DNA of 64,000 bases from an uncultured virus (IMG/VR IMGVR_UViG_3300028129_000011). Taxonomy: Duplodnaviria; Heunggongvirae; Uroviricota; Caudoviricetes. The stretch lies in the IMG/VR virus record IMGVR_UViG_3300028129_000011, one strand, 5' to 3'. A model generated the notes under the pieces. That model was not told the DNA's origin, ran no database searches, and saw only the letters and a list, made by a program, of their open reading frames with translations. The position numbers and the translations under genes were made by a program. How positions within the stretch are numbered: the stretch's first letter is position 1; every line of letters begins with the position of its first letter. Below are positions 1 through 5,976 of the stretch, in pieces.

Positions 1-502
1 TAACTGAGGCAGCTCCACGACGGACACTCCCTTGATTAGTTGCAAGAATTGTTGAGTCATATATCTTGCAGAAAGGTACGACTCCGTCTGATGTTCCATT
101 ACCTGTTATTCTAGCGCCAGCGGGTCTAATTTGATTTACACCGATACCAACTCCACCGCCGTGCTTAGCGAGTAGCATCATCTCTAAATTCTTCTGACCT
201 ATATCTTGTATGCTATCAGCAACATCAATCCCGAAACAGCTAATAGGCAAGCCACGATCAGTGCCTGTATTAGATAGTACTGGGGAAGCGAGACATAGCC
301 AACCATTCCAAATATAATCAAAAAATACTTCAGCCATTTCTGGTTTATAAAGTCTACGAGCAACTGTTTTAGCGACTCTTTTGTATGCCTCTCTAGGCGT
401 TTCTCCGTCAAGTAAATATCCCCCGGATATTGTCTTTTTGTATACGTCCGTATTACCCCACGCAGGAAAGTCCTCGCCTTTAATCCAATTTTCATTCCAC
501 AT
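1..502 (-). CDS. nrdA: Ribonucleotide reductase class Ia alpha subunit, N-terminal part (runs off the window start; allele 1)
   Basis: ATG at 502; translates MWNENWIKGEDFPAWG...SPVLSNTG...PISCF...HGGGVG...NQGSVRRGAASV; colinear with 63626-64000. Not in the ORF track because it is truncated. Confidence 0.93.
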   Translation of the reverse strand, partial: MWNENWIKGEDFPAWGNTDVYKKTISGGYLLDGETPREAYKRVAKTVARRLYKPEMAEVFFDYIWNGWLCLASPVLSNTGTDRGLPISCFGIDVADSIQDIGQKNLEMMLLAKHGGGVGIGVNQIRPAGARITGNGTSDGVVPFCKIYDSTILATNQGSVRRGAASV

Positions 503-509
503 ATTTTAC

Positions 510-884
510 TTATTTTGTTTGCCATCTTTTGTTATACTTAGGCTCGTGTTTAAATTCTAACTCTATTTCTTTAATTAATCTTTCTTGTTTACTAGTAGTC
601 TCTATAACTTCATACGTCCAAAACTCTTTGCAATAAGCTTTTTTAAATTGCCCTTTGTGAAAAGCTTTTGATTTGTCATAACCAAAATGCTCAGCTAATC
701 TTCTTGGACCATTAACTGATTCCCCAACGTAAATAATTTCACCAGTCTCATCTTTAATTATATAAACAATTTCCATAGGTACAGGAAACTCTTTATCAAA
801 TAATTTTTTTCTAGCTTTTTTAACTACTGCTTTTCTAGATTCTGTAATTGTGTAACCACTAAAACCATCGTGTATTTTTGTCAT
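510..884 (-). CDS. GIY-YIG family endonuclease (free-standing, homing-type)
   Basis: IVYII...IIYVGES...RRLAEH, then E (IKEIEL) and PKYN at the C-terminus, the GIY-YIG motif order. Confidence 0.8.
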   Translation of the reverse strand: MTKIHDGFSGYTITESRKAVVKKARKKLFDKEFPVPMEIVYIIKDETGEIIYVGESVNGPRRLAEHFGYDKSKAFHKGQFKKAYCKEFWTYEVIETTSKQERLIKEIELEFKHEPKYNKRWQTK

Positions 885-885
885 A

Positions 886-1317
886 TTATAAATGTCTGTG
901 AACAGCTTGCCTACTTATCTTTAACACGTCAGCTACATACTGTACGGTTTCTTGAGGCATTAACTCTCTGATTAATCTAATTTTAACTTTTGTTTTTAAC
1001 TTCTTGTTATTGCTTATAGACATAACTTCCTTAGTTTTTTCTAAGTTTTGTTTCATCTGATAAAAATAACTTGATGCCGACTTTACTTTACGATCAGTTA
1101 ATTCTTTAGACCATTTATATAGTGCAGCTTGTAGCCAACTATAAGGTTTTTTCCAGTCTTCAAAACCATTGATGTAATGTAAATCCCATTTGTTTCCGTG
1201 TATTTTATGATACCACCAATATTCATAACCATCAAAAGTTATCTTATGGTTTTCAGGAAGACATAGAGATTCAAGGTCTTGATCTGACCAACTCGTTATA
1301 TTCATATCTATTTCCAT
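886..1317 (-). CDS. Hypothetical protein with C-terminal helix-turn-helix
   Basis: TVQYVADVLKISRQAVHRHL is HTH-like; class II promoter motif immediately upstream. Confidence 0.65.
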   Translation of the reverse strand: MEIDMNITSWSDQDLESLCLPENHKITFDGYEYWWYHKIHGNKWDLHYINGFEDWKKPYSWLQAALYKWSKELTDRKVKSASSYFYQMKQNLEKTKEVMSISNNKKLKTKVKIRLIRELMPQETVQYVADVLKISRQAVHRHL

Positions 1318-1398
1318 TTGGTTTGTTATTTATATTATTACACGTTTACATTTAAAATTACATCAGCTGTAAACATTATTATTATTAGTTGCTGATTA

Positions 1399-1470
1399 TC
1401 AGTTAGTTGCGAAGTGAAATAATTTAACTAAAGGGTAATCTTCTCCTTTAATCCATTTATTATTCCACAT
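1399..1470 (-). pseudogene. Truncated nrdA 5' remnant, MWNNKWIKGEDYP then unrelated sequence (23 aa)
   Basis: First 13 codons match the nrdA N-terminus MWNENWIKGEDFP. Confidence 0.75.
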
Positions 1471-1475
1471 ATTTA

Positions 1476-1739
1476 TTATTTGTTTTTATAATTTTCTACT
1501 TCAAGCCACTCGGTAGGATCTACAAACCATCTGCCTTCTATTTTTACTTCAAAGAAACTATTTACGCCTTGTGGCTTGTAGAAGATTTTATTGTTTTCAA
1601 CTTTCCACATATGACCGTAACCAGTTCTAATAAAGTTGTTGTTGTTAATTAAAGCTTTACTAATATCCTCGAAGCTTTTAACAATTACTGTTGGAAAATC
1701 TGTTATATCTTCTCCTTTGATCCAGTTTTCATTCCACAT
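1476..1739 (-). CDS. Hypothetical protein starting with the nrdA N-terminal 11 aa
   Basis: MWNENWIKGED is identical to the nrdA start; the remainder is unrelated. Confidence 0.65.
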   Translation of the reverse strand: MWNENWIKGEDITDFPTVIVKSFEDISKALINNNNFIRTGYGHMWKVENNKIFYKPQGVNSFFEVKIEGRWFVDPTEWLEVENYKNK

Positions 1740-1743
1740 ATTA

Positions 1744-2010
1744 TTATTTTAAAAAGTGAGTTATCCAGGCTATTAACCCATTTATATTTAAAGCTACTAA
1801 GTTCCATTGTTTCCTAGAGCTTGTTTGTATTATTACTAGTATAAATCCTACCATGTAAAGTTTTGGATCTATAGTCCATTGAGCAGCGATTAAAAAACCA
1901 CTACCCATGTAACCTATTCTAATTGCTAATCTTTCTTCAGGTTTCAGTTTCTTCGATCTTACTAGCTTTTTTAACCACTTCTTCTTTAAGCTTTTCAATT
2001 GCTGCATCAT
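1744..2010 (-). CDS. Small membrane protein
   Basis: Several hydrophobic segments; start uncertain (overlaps upstream ORF). Confidence 0.6.
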   Translation of the reverse strand: MMQQLKSLKKKWLKKLVRSKKLKPEERLAIRIGYMGSGFLIAAQWTIDPKLYMVGFILVIIQTSSRKQWNLVALNINGLIAWITHFLK

Positions 2011-2158
2011 ATTCTTTAAATTGTTTAATTGTTTCTAGCGTACCTATTGATAAGTCTTTAAGATAAGCGTTTTCATCTAGTATTTGTTGCACTACTCTTA
2101 TTAATGCTTCAATCTTTTTCTCTAAAAGATCGACTCTACTTTGTTTTTGTTTAGTCAT
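1937..2158 (-). CDS. Hypothetical coiled-coil protein
   Basis: ORF within the operon, heptad-like pattern. Confidence 0.65.
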   Translation of the reverse strand: MTKQKQSRVDLLEKKIEALIRVVQQILDENAYLKDLSIGTLETIKQFKEYDAAIEKLKEEVVKKASKIEETET

Positions 2159-2365
2159 TTATTTATATTTAATTTTATTACCATATATCTTCGAAGTCTT
2201 CACCTTCGTTAGCTTTTGAATAATCAGTGGGCCTAATCGCGAAAAAATCAGTATGAGTGACCCCGCCGGTAAGATGATAGAACCAATCAAGATTAGCTGC
2301 TGCTTTCTCGTCATATGCGAAATACGATCCCAAGTCAACATAACCAAGTTCCACAAGTTTTTCAT
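2159..2365 (-). CDS. Candidate overprinted small membrane protein in the +1 frame of the nrdB 3' end
   Basis: A-rich start context; TM segment LILIGSIILPAGSLILIF; stop abuts the next ATG; nrdB codons become G/C-ending across the overlap. Confidence 0.5.
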   Translation of the reverse strand: MKNLWNLVMLTWDRISHMTRKQQLILIGSIILPAGSLILIFSRLGPLIIQKLTKVKTSKIYGNKIKYK

Positions 2366-3146
2366 TTGCTCTCTTTTTTATAAAGTGTTTAAGATCATTA
2401 GCTGATATACCTTCTATGTCACCCATCTCAAACATCTTGTTAATATATTCTGTTTCAAGTTTAACCATTGTTTCTGCCGCACTTATAATCTCTTCTCTAC
2501 ATAAATGCAGTAATTGATCGTTCTCACTACACATATCACGGAATAATTTACACCCCATTTTGCTATGTAAAGATTCATCTCTAACACTCCACTTCATCTG
2601 CTGACCAATACCTTTTAATAAGTTTCTTAATTGAAAAGAATATAGTACAGCAAAAGCAGAATAAAGACTAACCCCTTCAGCGAAAGCAGAAAATACAGCA
2701 AGAGACTTAGCAATACCAATTTGATCATTTCCTTTATAGGCCACAAGGTTATCAAATCTCTTAGACGTCGCAGGTTCGTGTAGAAATGCTTCATAATCTT
2801 CTAACCCTAATGTTTCGTTTAAATAACTGTAAGCTACAGCGTGAACTGTTTCTTGCGATCCAAACATCATAGCCATTTGTTGTATTTCGTGTTTAGGAAA
2901 CCAACCAACTACTTTTTGTGTCCAGTAATCTGAAACAGCACATTCTGTTTGTGCAAAACCTAGTAATATATTACCTACTAAGTTTTTTTCTTTTTCATTT
3001 AATTTTTCGTTCCAATCCTTAATATCACTTTGCATTGATATTTCTGTGTGTAACCAAAACGCTTGAGCTTGTTTTAACCAACCCTCAGTATAATATTCAG
3101 GGTACTCAAAAGGTTTGTAAGCTATTCTTTCGTCAAATAATCCCAT
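2178..3146 (-). CDS. nrdB: Ribonucleotide reductase class Ia beta subunit
   Basis: FW..EI, QETVHAVAY, EGVSLYSAF and RDESLH diiron motifs, HTDFFA C-terminus; likely start ATG 3146 (TAATG overlap). Confidence 0.95.
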   Translation of the reverse strand: MGLFDERIAYKPFEYPEYYTEGWLKQAQAFWLHTEISMQSDIKDWNEKLNEKEKNLVGNILLGFAQTECAVSDYWTQKVVGWFPKHEIQQMAMMFGSQETVHAVAYSYLNETLGLEDYEAFLHEPATSKRFDNLVAYKGNDQIGIAKSLAVFSAFAEGVSLYSAFAVLYSFQLRNLLKGIGQQMKWSVRDESLHSKMGCKLFRDMCSENDQLLHLCREEIISAAETMVKLETEYINKMFEMGDIEGISANDLKHFIKKRANEKLVELGYVDLGSYFAYDEKAAANLDWFYHLTGGVTHTDFFAIRPTDYSKANEGEDFEDIW

Positions 3147-3316
3147 TAGTTTATCATAAATTTTATAGTTTGTAATGTGTTTTGCCACGCAGCTATATAA
3201 GCTATCATATCTTTTTTATTTACTGAAGCTTTTACTTGCTTCATCTCATGTACAACTTCTTCTATAAAAAAGTTTACAGTTTCAAGTTTGTCTTGTAATT
3301 CCTTGTTATCGCTCAT
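3146..3316 (-). CDS. Small hypothetical protein (56 aa, MSDNKELQDK...)
   Basis: Translated by hand; stop overlaps the nrdB ATG. Confidence 0.6.
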   Translation of the reverse strand: MSDNKELQDKLETVNFFIEEVVHEMKQVKASVNKKDMIAYIAAWQNTLQTIKFMIN

Positions 3317-3479
3317 TGTAAAAAGCTATATCTACAAAAGGTAAATAAAAAACATGTATTTTCGCATTTTCCATTTCATAAGATCTAATTCCAAATAGTA
3401 CACCTGGATAAAGACCTAATTCAATAGACCAACCTTTTTCATTTTCTTCTCCACGCGGAGCATTCGATTTTGAACTCAT
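3306..3479 (-). CDS. Small hypothetical protein (57 aa, ...WSIELGLYPGVLFGIRSY...)
   Basis: Translated by hand; fills the operon gap. Confidence 0.55.
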   Translation of the reverse strand: MSSKSNAPRGEENEKGWSIELGLYPGVLFGIRSYEMENAKIHVFYLPFVDIAFYNER

Positions 3480-3569: not shown

Positions 3570-4037
3570 TTATTTTTGCGTTGATCTTCGCTTTTCTAGT
3601 ATTAAGTTTATTGTCTCGTCGCATTCTTTTTGACACTGTGGTTTATATAATGTTGTATTAGGGAATTGTTCTACTATTAATCTCTTAAATAATTTCCATC
3701 TCATAGGAAATGACTCGTTTGCTCTACCTTTAGTTTCTATTATAAAATCATCACCTATAAAATCAGGAGTATACTTGATTGGTAAAATTCTTTTACAACC
3801 TCTATTAACAAATTCACCCTTACCGTTTGATTGTCTTTCATATACTTCGTTCGCAAAATAAAAACCACTAGATAAGACAAATGTCTCTCCTTCGTATTTA
3901 GCTTTGATCTTATTTTTCTTTAAAGCTATATACATATATTTCTCTAACCCGGAGGCAAAAGTGATGCCATCGTGCACCACTTTATTTGACCTCACAGGAC
4001 CTTTTTTTCTTGATCTTTTTTTAAAAACTTTCTTCAT
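3570..4037 (-). CDS. PD-(D/E)XK endonuclease, T7 endonuclease I-like (resolvase or host DNA degradation)
   Basis: FASGLE...YTPDF...IIETKG. Confidence 0.8.
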   Translation of the reverse strand: MKKVFKKRSRKKGPVRSNKVVHDGITFASGLEKYMYIALKKNKIKAKYEGETFVLSSGFYFANEVYERQSNGKGEFVNRGCKRILPIKYTPDFIGDDFIIETKGRANESFPMRWKLFKRLIVEQFPNTTLYKPQCQKECDETINLILEKRRSTQK

Positions 4038-4314
4038 AATGATTACCATCATTACCGTTTTGTGCAATGATCTTAATTCTATTTAACATTGATTCTTCAA
4101 TTTCATCAGCTAAGCAACGTTTCGCAGCTTCAATGTAAAGTAATGCATCCATTAATTCTTCTTGAACATCAATTAAAAACCTATTTAAGTCTTTTTCTTG
4201 ACCTTCAATTTCTTGCATCATTGTTGCTCCGTATTTCTCTTGACCTACTAAACTACGTTGATCCATTTTTTTTAATACAGATAATACTATTTGATCTTTT
4301 GTTTTTATCTCCAT
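4021..4314 (-). CDS. All-alpha NTP pyrophosphohydrolase-like protein
   Basis: RSLVGQEKYG...QEELMDALLY (EExxD). Confidence 0.55.
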   Translation of the reverse strand: MEIKTKDQIVLSVLKKMDQRSLVGQEKYGATMMQEIEGQEKDLNRFLIDVQEELMDALLYIEAAKRCLADEIEESMLNRIKIIAQNGNDGNHYEESF

Positions 4315-5096
4315 TATAATGTTTGTTTTACAAATGTTCCATTAATCATTTTACCTTTGCGATTAGCTATTTCATGATATGCTGAATCAATACATTCCTC
4401 TATCTCAAGTCCTTCTAACTTTGCTAAGTTTGTTAATACAACAACCATATCACCAATCGCATCTATAATTTCTGGTTCATCTTCATCAAGTAATGCTTTT
4501 GCTAATTCACCAGCTTCCTCCATAAGTTTTACATATTGAGTTTTAGAGTCTCCAGCATCATATATACCTCTTTCTTTAGCCCAAGATCTAATGTTATCAA
4601 ATACACTAGGAGTTTGTTTTTCTATAGTTTCTATTGTTTTTGGATATTCTAAAAACTCAGCAGCGTATGCTTTATTATAAATATAGCATCTGTTTATATT
4701 AAACATTGATACTCTAGCGTTTTGAATTATCCAGTCTATTGTTTGATCATCTAAACCAAATACTCCGTGCTCAGTAGCCCATTTAAGACCTATGTTATCT
4801 AGCAAATTGCCTTTTAATTTATTTATTGGGCATGGAAAAGTTGTTGTTTGTTCTGTTACGTTAATTTTCATTTCTCTCTTGTTTTTATTGATTAAATTTT
4901 CATATAATTGATTATCTACTTTATATCCATAAAGTTTTTGTAATTCTAATTCTTTTTTAGACGCGTAAGATATATCTTCTGTAGCTTCTAATAACTCGTA
5001 TTCTCCAAGTTTGTAACCTTGTTGTTTAGTTACTCTTTCATTTAGGTTTTTTGTTAAACCTATTTTTTTTCCTGGTATGTGATAAAGATAATACAT
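4314..5096 (-). CDS. Fusion: degenerate GIY-YIG-like N-terminus + MazG-like NTP pyrophosphatase
   Basis: N-term YYLYHIPGKKIGLT..L.ERV; C-term KLMEEAGELA...DAIGD...EIANRKG. Confidence 0.75.
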   Translation of the reverse strand: MYYLYHIPGKKIGLTKNLNERVTKQQGYKLGEYELLEATEDISYASKKELELQKLYGYKVDNQLYENLINKNKREMKINVTEQTTTFPCPINKLKGNLLDNIGLKWATEHGVFGLDDQTIDWIIQNARVSMFNINRCYIYNKAYAAEFLEYPKTIETIEKQTPSVFDNIRSWAKERGIYDAGDSKTQYVKLMEEAGELAKALLDEDEPEIIDAIGDMVVVLTNLAKLEGLEIEECIDSAYHEIANRKGKMINGTFVKQTL

Positions 5097-5741: not shown

Positions 5742-5976
5742 ATTTGTTATAATAGTATTTGTAGTATTCATAAACTTTCTGCCATATATGATTTTTGTTA
5801 TATGTTTTAGGATCTGTATTTTTATTACCTTTATTTTCTATAACAATTGTCCACGTGGCTTCTTTTATAGCTATTGGTGATATATATATATTATTTTTTA
5901 AGCACCAAAATCTAGCTTTTTCTTCTTGTTCATCTGGTAAATAATTACCCATATCAAATGGATTACTTTTAGCCAT
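5725..5976 (-). CDS. Hypothetical protein
   Basis: ORF within the operon. Confidence 0.6.
   Translation of the reverse strand: MAKSNPFDMGNYLPDEQEEKARFWCLKNNIYISPIAIKEATWTIVIENKGNKNTDPKTYNKNHIWQKVYEYYKYYYNKYENKI

Follow-up and report, generated by a model that had tools for sequence, protein, structure and literature searches.

Nested cassettes with a spare nrdA start at the 5′ end of nrdA in an uncultured caudovirus, and their probable spread by homing

Organisation of the nrdA 5′ region

The virus record IMGVR_UViG_3300028129_000011 (IMG/VR; Caudoviricetes) is 67,546 nt long, and the window analysed here is the stretch of its bases 1-64000. At the 5′ end of nrdA, which encodes the large subunit of ribonucleotide reductase (RNR), the beginning of the gene is present three times, and the copies are separated by a small open reading frame (ORF), orf87, and by a module made up of a leader, a helix-turn-helix (HTH) gene, HTH143, and a GIY-YIG endonuclease gene, GIY124. 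The window ORF list places the genes around nrdB-nrdA on the minus strand throughout, and their order from 5′ to 3′ is nrdB, orf73, orf88, orf87 (opened by copy 1), copy 2, leader, HTH143, GIY124 and nrdA (opened by copy 3), as shown in Table 1.

The pattern ATG TGG AAT..GGN GAR GAY was found on the minus strand at 1739, 1470 and 502. Copy 1, with its ATG at 1739, encodes MWNENWIKGED and runs on as an ORF of 87 codons (1739..1476); copy 2 (ATG 1470) reads MWNNKWIKGEDYP and is a stub that meets a stop after 23 codons (1470..1399); and copy 3 (ATG 502) reads MWNENWIKGEDFP, the opening of nrdA. A 33-nt degenerate form of the pattern has three matches in the 64 kb, with 0, 3 and 0 mismatches, and none in 100 dinucleotide-preserving shuffles. 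A repeat search delimited a 43-nt family at 464-506, 1432-1474 and 1701-1743, in which the second and third members share 81% and 77% identity with the first, and the likeness from copy to copy sets in about 6-10 nt 5′ of the ATG. As a baseline, the first 36 nt of each ORF were compared with the 2.5 kb upstream, a near-copy being counted at ≥27 of 36 matching positions; for the 75 other ORFs of the window that begin with ATG and reach ≥70 aa, not one such near-copy was detected ahead of the start. A single 1,479-nt contig from run X14 equals window 407-1885 with 0 differences and spans all three copies, so the three-copy layout is real DNA, and a single contig of run X10 covers 687-1605. The sequence-only reading of this DNA had claimed a triplicate start, with copy 1 fused to an 87-codon ORF, copy 2 ending at 23 codons, copy 3 opening nrdA, and HTH and GIY-YIG genes between copies 2 and 3; the pattern count (three, none expected), the X14 contig and the ORFs agree with it on each point. 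Contigs of run X15, an RNA library, cover window 896-1469 and 1761-1897 only, and the presence of a contig in such a library proves neither transcription nor transcript ends.

The nrdA gene is represented in the window by 167 codons only, being cut off by the first base of the record. The two ends of the record are diverged versions of one region, its last 3.9 kb being 80-91% identical to its first 3.2 kb (record 63626-66497, locus L006, against window 1-3200). Judged from these repeated ends, the assembly probably merged two co-occurring strains with a circularly permuted genome, which would account for the cut nrdA. The full 588-codon nrdA sits in this second version, allele B, and matches Pfam Ribonuc_red_lgC (4.5e-90) as well as lgN. 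Allele B contains orf87, GIY124 and the real nrdA start; the stretch equivalent to window 888-1476, with copy 2, the leader and HTH143, is missing from it, and its orf87 continues directly into the GIY ATG. An additional 85-codon hydrophobic ORF was also observed in allele B, 3′ of nrdB.

GIY124 scores 37.8 bits against PF01541 (cut-off 22.6), and the residues Y41, Y52, G54, R61/R62, E108 and N118 do not vary among 17 aligned sequences; we take them to correspond to the catalytic residues of I-TevI. No match to GIY124 was obtained in 50,697 phage records. One protein of the GIY124 cluster, P0024, has 230 residues, with about 105 unrelated ones ahead of the GIY124 sequence, and may be a fusion to the start of another gene. 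HTH143 ends one base ahead of the GIY ATG (TAATATG). Its match to Pfam HTH_22 lies under the cut-off, and its predicted fold has a predicted local distance difference test (pLDDT) score of 87-94 at residues 100-143, a mean of 71 and values <60 in the N-terminal half; Foldseek found no match for the predicted fold in the PDB at E ≤0.001. The N-terminal domain carries conserved His, Asp and Cys and has no recognisable fold. Within the leader, the letters that had been read as an 'IHF box', TATCAGTTAGTTG, were indeed found at 1397-1409 on the plus strand, where they overlap the 5′ half of a palindrome conserved in 17 leaders and extend 7 nt upstream of it. A tie to IHF is unsupported, and so is the label 'phage class II promoter'; a scan for sigma-70-type promoters returned 12 sites versus 9.1 expected, which is no excess.

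The orf87 gene consists of an N-terminal leader that is variable and always derived from an nrdA start, and of a 69-residue core, for which the ratio of nonsynonymous to synonymous substitution rates (dN/dS) is 0.14-0.24 between distant copies. Judged from its sequence, orf87 is a real gene whose core evolves under purifying selection as a protein of its own. It belongs to no Pfam or PHROG family, a search of 5.8 billion proteins returned its own cluster only, a scan of viral contigs with it returned nrdA starts only, and every match in the ESM Atlas stayed below 0.9. An orf87-like gene with an nrdA-like ATG TGG AAT was also seen after orf88 in L223 (3972-4210), where there is no nrd gene within 4 kb on either side. 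The idea that orf87 is a decayed nrdA was tried and rejected, BLASTP giving an E value of 0.28, shuffled sequences reaching the observed score in 153 of 2,000 local and 145 of 2,000 global alignments, and the comparison of the DNA showing nothing.

The proposal that this is a non-intron, non-intein arrangement held up. In window 1-3400 there is no Rfam family at E ≤1 and no tRNA, no intein domain occurs among the Pfam matches, and what is found in place of a group I or group II intron or an intein is a pair of copies, 1 and 2, that end in stops, with no ribozyme fold and no Hint domain. Splicing is neither needed nor possible; every copy owns an ATG and the stubs terminate in stops.

Table 1. 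Features of the nrdB-nrdA region of the window (positions on the window; -, minus strand).
Feature	Position	Strand	Basis
nrdA (RNR large subunit), first 167 codons	2..502	-	ORF; DNA 85% identical with the complete 588-codon nrdA at the other record end
Repeat copy 3: spacer, ATG and nrdA codons 1-13; 3′ end of the endonuclease cassette	464..508	-	Repeat and pattern searches; comparison with L222
GIY124, GIY-YIG endonuclease gene, 124 aa, catalytic domain alone	510..884	-	Pfam PF01541, E 2.4e-9
HTH143, 143 codons, C-terminal helix-turn-helix	886..1317	-	ORF; predicted fold; 16 relatives at other sites
Leader of the HTH143 module, 114 nt, non-coding, conserved	1318..1431	-	Alignment of 17 modules
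Leader inverted repeat GTTTACA-N17-TGTAAAC	1344-1374		1 exact match in the window
Leader palindrome CTGATAATCAG	1392-1402		Conserved in the 17-module alignment
Repeat copy 2, stub of a presumed former nrdA start; codons 1-13 (1470..1432) meet the leader at 1432/1431	1399..1470	-	
orf87: copy 1 (codons 1-11, 1739..1707) in frame with a conserved 69-residue core	1476..1739	-	
orf88, small, hydrophobic, putative membrane protein by eye; usual left neighbour of nrdA at empty sites	1744..2010	-	
orf73, small, coiled coil by eye; within the variable nrdB-nrdA interval	1937..2158	-	
nrdB (RNR small subunit); upstream border of the variable interval	2178..3146	-	Pfam Ribonuc_red_sm, E 1.2e-57

Empty and occupied nrdA starts among relatives

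A scan of viral contigs with NrdA yielded 80 loci at 80-95% protein identity, 77 of which include the nrdA start; a single start was found in 76 of these and two in the remaining one (L035). Among cultured relatives the best NrdA match is 60%, to Flavobacterium phage immuto, and none is close. The gap between nrdB and nrdA varies from 4 to 1,394 nt across the relatives, with nrdB-orf73-orf88-nrdA being the commonest layout. When all fetched loci were combined, 160 distinct nrdA 5′ regions were obtained, of which 153 are single-copy and seven hold at least two copies. The multi-copy counts are lower bounds because 33 of the 160 regions had <600 nt upstream and a truncated third copy in L226 escaped the scan; an exact-pattern scan of viral contigs, which lacked AAC at codon 5 and missed copies such as that of L035, served as a source of loci only. 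Besides these, one X15 contig departs from the window at 1761, the end of orf88, and passes directly into an nrdA start of the NNE type, and because it joins the two, empty-site and cassette alleles co-occur in that sample.

Two or three copies were observed in nine alleles, namely the window (allele A), allele B, L035, L098, L194, L222, L224, L225 and L226. Six kinds of cargo are carried by them, and the junctions fall at codons 10-14 in five of the six and at codon 5 in one: the orf87 family follows codon 11, a 48-residue tail follows codon 12-13 (L035, L194), the HTH143 leader follows codon 13 (window, L098), a 62-aa ORF follows codon 14 (L222), a 145-aa Cys-rich ORF follows codon 10 (L194) and a 61-aa ORF follows codon 5 (L226). 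L098 presents orf88, the stub MWNNEWIKGEDYP with the same leader, HTH143 (97% identical), a GIY gene (61%) and nrdA, and is thus the leader-HTH143 module of the window without orf87. In L222, orf87 is followed by a copy fused after codon 14 to the 62-codon ORF, a short HTH ORF, GIY124 (100% identical) and nrdA. Three copies in L194 surround small cargo of the L035 type and the 145-codon Cys-rich ORF, after which a GIY124 relative (79%) is encoded, and three copies in L226 surround an orf87-like gene and the 61-codon ORF. L035 has a 59-codon ORF fused after codon 12. L224 and L225, which have no nuclease gene, carry orf88, a decayed copy, an orf87-like gene begun at the internal ATG of the repeat in another frame, and nrdA six bases further on. 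The stubs of L194, L224, L225 and L226 contain frame shifts or stops.

Relatives of GIY124 are sporadic, being present in five alleles of about 162 distinct nrdA 5′ regions; they stand directly upstream of nrdA in 5/5 and are accompanied by at least one stub in 5/5, and an HTH protein is encoded immediately upstream of the GIY gene in 3/5. The edges of the unit that they form can be read from a comparison of the window with L222: identity is 99.8% in the 423 nt that reach from the GIY gene to the end of nrdA codon 13 and 85.1% in the 450 nt beyond, and the switch is visible base by base. Since identity falls so sharply at codon 13/14, a discrete unit ends at codon 13. When 134 nrdA segments (codons 14-163) were placed in a tree, the five GIY-bearing alleles came out scattered rather than clustered, and the nearest neighbour of each GIY-bearing nrdA body among the 134 sequences is a GIY-less allele, at 88-92% identity. 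This scatter indicates that the GIY gene and its carried start were joined to several nrdA bodies, and the joint coincides with the ends of the stubs. At the left edge, window and L098 have an identical stub-leader junction but different neighbours to the left of the stub (orf87 versus orf88), so the start of about 45 bp is all that is shared there. In the window, the orf87 stop and the spacer that leads to copy 2 have their match in L224, where an orf87-like stop and spacer precede the real nrdA start; it follows that copy 2 was most likely once the working nrdA start behind orf87, before the module entered.

The commonest form of the start is GGAGAAGATTACCCT, present in 94 of the 160 regions. 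Codons 11-12 of the working copy are GAC TTT in 4/4 alleles of the GIY124 type and CAG TAT in L098, and within the 160 regions GACTTT was found beside GIY124-type genes only. The stubs retain the common GATTACCCT (GAT TAC) while the working copy has GACTTT or CAGTAT; at 33-39 nt they are too short for a tree. Taken from the distribution of these codons, the change to GAC TTT would fit a protection of the carrier from its own enzyme.

The sequence-only reading had further proposed that elements enter nrdA again and again around codon 11-13, take over the start of the gene and restore a complete 5′ end further downstream, and had looked to relatives for empty sites and for other cargo within the same repeat. 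Both kinds of allele exist, in the 153 single-copy regions and in L035, L194, L222, L224, L225 and L226, and together with the identity drop at codon 13/14 they support the proposal.

The HTH143 module at other genes

Relatives of HTH143, 66-97% identical, were detected at 16 other viral-contig loci (L098-L113), and all 16 are preceded by the same leader of 114-130 nt with its palindrome and inverted repeat; no second HTH143 module was found in the window's own genome. The cultured Maribacter phage Panino encodes a 34% match that is not followed by a nuclease gene. Of the 16 loci, 15 continue after HTH143 with a variable ORF at an overlapping stop and start (TAAT(T)ATG). The HTH143 product may be a repressor or a targeting partner, or may serve otherwise. 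Twelve of these ORFs were scanned with Pfam: three pass the cut-off, as GIY-YIG (L098), Endonuclease_7 (L107) and NUMOD3 (L108), those of L100, L104 and L105 have matches at or under the cut-off, and the other six have no Pfam match and are GIY-YIG-like or HNH-like by eye only.

At several of these loci the stub to the left of the module is the start of the gene that follows the nuclease. In L099 and L108 this is a DUF1064 gene. In L107, where the nuclease is of the Endonuclease VII type, the stub (3910-3956) resembles an RNR-alpha-like start and the gene begins at 5018. In L104, with an I-TevI-like GIY-YIG nuclease, 46 codons of an orf97-family gene that begins at 2017 are duplicated at about 780-900, and stub and working copy have diverged across these 46 codons. 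In a protein test limited to these four loci, which were chosen by eye, the stub peptides of L099, L108, L107 and L104 each outscore 300 of 300 shuffles. A test for duplication of the flanks at the DNA level, applied to all 17 HTH143 loci, flagged the window, L098 and L105. L105 is a mirror-image case at a 3′ end, with the final 84 nt of a primase-helicase gene standing on both sides of the module (4794-4877 and 5815-5898).

Elsewhere in the window, a 260-codon ORF at 4314-5096 (minus strand) has a MazG/PRA-PH match in its C-terminal third and an N-terminus that is GIY-YIG-like by eye only; its full length is kept in most relatives (86 of 100 matches), and so it is not a recent insertion.

Origin of the cassettes and comparison with known systems

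The anatomy of the locus, the empty, one-cassette and multi-cassette alleles, the unit with its right edge at codon 13 and its left edge at the stub-leader junction, the link of nuclease genes with gene-end stubs and the same architecture at other genes are established. A catalytic domain, a sporadic occurrence at a fixed site beside a conserved gene and movement with a flanking tract, three marks of a free-standing GIY-YIG homing endonuclease gene (HEG), are found for GIY124, and the cassettes are most likely free-standing homing-endonuclease cassettes with a spare gene end, the cleavage itself being what we infer. We consider it rather probable that two cassettes are nested within the first 11-13 codons of nrdA and were placed and spread by endonuclease-triggered double-strand-break repair, that is, homing, with a predicted cut near codon 13/14. 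On this proposal, the orf87 cargo would have entered after codon 11 and would since have used its nrdA-derived start for its own translation. The start then serving nrdA would have been struck after codon 13 by the HTH143-GIY module and reduced to the 23-codon stub, the module's own codons 1-13 would now serve nrdA, and GAC TTT in place of GAT TAC would block re-cutting. GIY124 would cut nrdA near codon 13/14 in phages without GIY124; during repair in a co-infected cell homology would come from the stub of about 45 bp on the left and from the nrdA body on the right, so that leader, HTH143, GIY124 and protected start would be copied in. Such a unit could enter any phage with a conserved nrdA start, regardless of the DNA upstream. 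The first entry of each cargo might have been a one-sided, partly illegitimate repair of the same break, a process documented for T4 intron homing (PMC2988022), and the displaced start would have remained active and been taken over by the cargo.

A bolder version may be put forward tentatively, as possible though on balance doubtful. The nrdA start of about 45 bp might be the attachment and expression site of an integron-like array without an integrase, to which repeated breaks by a homing endonuclease would add cassettes bounded by starts; captured genes would be expressed from the starts they displaced, the array would move between phages with the repeat as its sole left arm, and the HTH143 chassis, equipped with other nucleases, would act likewise where several essential genes begin or end. 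If true, this would be a general and previously undescribed phage route to acquire and exchange small genes inside essential genes.

Several observations weigh against the homing interpretation. GIY124, at 124 aa, has no second Pfam domain and no recognisable DNA-binding domain, unlike characterised GIY-YIG homing enzymes. The L226 junction, at codon 5, falls outside the cluster at codons 10-14, and in 10 of the 17 HTH143 loci the DNA test found no flank duplication. The link of GAC TTT to the endonuclease gene comes from four related alleles, and D-F-P is written in other codons in four GIY-less alleles (L012, L068, L234 and L260). Allele B, in which HTH143 and stub 2 are missing, needs a deletion or another history. 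Moreover, in four of the nine multi-copy alleles (L035, L224, L225 and L226) the interval contains no endonuclease gene, so the repeat can persist, and perhaps arise, without an endonuclease.

These four alleles also speak for the strongest rival explanation, shuffling without an endonuclease, in which the start of about 45 bp, conserved among co-infecting phages, is a portable patch of homology, ordinary or short-homology recombination and errors of copy choice stack small genes upon it, and the GIY-YIG gene is mere cargo. Repeat-mediated modular shuffling occurs in T4-type phages (PeSL elements), the nrdA start is near-identical in DNA across the 160 regions, and the cargo is started either at the ATG of the repeat or at the +2-frame ATG within it, which means that the repeat could be maintained by selection for expression alone. 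Shuffling leaves unexplained, however, why five of six junctions fall at codons 10-14, why the GIY124 relatives keep to a single site with a stub in 5/5, why nuclease modules are accompanied by stubs at four other genes and why GAC TTT occurs beside GIY124 alone, and we regard it as unlikely, if worth serious consideration.

A regulatory role of the stubs, which would then adjust downstream translation as leader peptides or coupling devices and make the triplication itself the object of selection, appears very improbable. The single base between the HTH143 stop and the GIY ATG would suit this, and translational coupling is known for free-standing endonuclease genes of T4 (PMC2988022); yet the tail of stub 2 reads LVKLFHFATN in the window and LVKLFSLVTY in L098, which argues that its peptide is unconstrained, the stubs of four alleles are shifted in frame or bear stops, and most relatives have no stub at all. 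A local tandem duplication at the nrdA 5′ end that later decayed, with orf87 as a worn NrdA N-terminus, is more improbable again: a weak collinear FYKPxxxxxFF lies at a similar distance from the start in orf87 and NrdA, but the match between the two is insignificant by BLASTP and by shuffling, the orf87 core appears to be under purifying selection of its own, and the HTH143 module, with its 16 other sites, is clearly foreign. An assembly artefact, a strain chimera yielding false repeats, is barely credible even though the record joins two diverged versions of the region at its ends, as contigs of other runs span the copies without a difference, like layouts occur in other assemblies (L098, L194, L222 and L226), and copies of 33-43 nt that are 77-81% alike are too short and too diverged to mislead an assembler.

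The homing interpretation leads to two testable predictions, a cut at nrdA codon 13/14 and an immunity change from GAT TAC to GAC TTT. For annotation, the arrangement accounts for orphan mini-ORFs that begin like the neighbouring gene; it offers a concrete route by which small accessory genes could gain expression signals and spread among marine phages, and it brings into view a conserved HTH gene found in company with many unrelated nucleases.

The idea of insertion has precedents in the mobile endonuclease ORFs (mORFs) of fungi (PMC3630166) and in the gene fragments of phage HEG-islands (PMC10055350). In fungal mitochondrial mORFs, an insertion in the 3′ end of a gene brings a foreign C-terminus and the native one is left as a duplicate, as in atp6 of Allomyces macrogynus and in atp6, atp9, cox2 and nad3 of Glomus (PMC3630166), and free GIY-YIG genes duplicated with the atp9 N-terminus are on record as well (PMC7487136). 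The likeness lies in a free-standing GIY-YIG or LAGLIDADG gene in the end of a conserved gene of which two copies stand beside it; in the mORFs the carried end works and the native end is a diverged duplicate (PMC3630166), and in the phage cassettes the stub would likewise be the native end. This layout, an endonuclease ORF between a working and a remnant gene end, was found at the nrdA 5′ end in the window, L098, L194 and L222, at other 5′ ends in L099, L104, L107 and L108, and at a 3′ end in L105, whose primase-helicase case is exactly the mORF layout (PMC3630166). Unlike the mORFs described there, the window cassette replaces a 5′ end and must therefore bring a ribosome site and a start codon with it; the displaced start would remain usable and be adopted by cargo genes. 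Further differences are the phage host, the serial stacking of the cassettes and the small size of the duplicated piece, about 45 bp.

In T4-type phages mobE stands between nrdA and nrdB, and SegF and SegG perform 'intronless homing' (PMC2988022, PMC3653736). The window resembles these free-standing HEGs in having a GIY-YIG or HNH gene among genes of nucleotide metabolism, with RNR favoured and a sporadic occurrence among relatives, in the tie of the nuclease ATG to the stop of the ORF upstream, and in a spread by break repair together with flanking DNA (PMC2988022, PMC3653736), which for the window is the proposed route. The T4 genes differ in that they sit between intact genes and cut in the neighbour, with no duplicated gene end described in the portions of these accounts used here (PMC2988022, PMC3653736), whereas the unit in the window reaches into nrdA as far as codon 13 and has a direct repeat of the gene start at its borders; unlike the Seg proteins, GIY124 has no DNA-binding domain. 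The phage 'HEG-islands' of Barth et al. (preprint, PMC10055350) contain small ORFs that are fragments of the neighbouring essential gene and were proposed as recombination substrates for later homing. They share with the window the gene fragments beside phage endonuclease genes, and the main text of PMC10055350, as far as drawn on here, gives no junction anatomy, regeneration of a 5′ end, serial stacking or capture of a start by cargo. A full-text literature search returned no regenerated 5′ end with its own start, serial stacking, start capture by cargo or HTH chassis common to unrelated nucleases, the nearest statement being the gene-fragment sentence in PMC10055350.

In Aeromonas phage Aeh1, mobE splits nrdA, and mobA lies in the T4 topoisomerase gene (PMC2988022, PMC3045599). 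Aeh1 mobE is again a free-standing endonuclease gene inside an essential gene, the same nrdA, with no intron or intein, and the Aeh1 gene is left in two pieces whose products reassemble (PMC2988022, PMC3045599), whereas nrdA of the window stays whole since the cassette supplies a new 5′ end. The window cassettes also resemble HEGs of group I introns and inteins, in which a selfish nuclease gene occupies a precise site in an essential conserved gene, and differ from them in dispensing with splicing. To our knowledge, HEGs have been thought to require an intron, an intein or an intergenic gap beside essential genes. The natural series described here begins with an empty site, continues with alleles of one, two and three cassettes and extends to other genes that bear the same chassis. 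It reveals a third solution, used at a gene's 5′ end, in which the cassette is equipped with a spare set of ribosome site, start codon and first codons.

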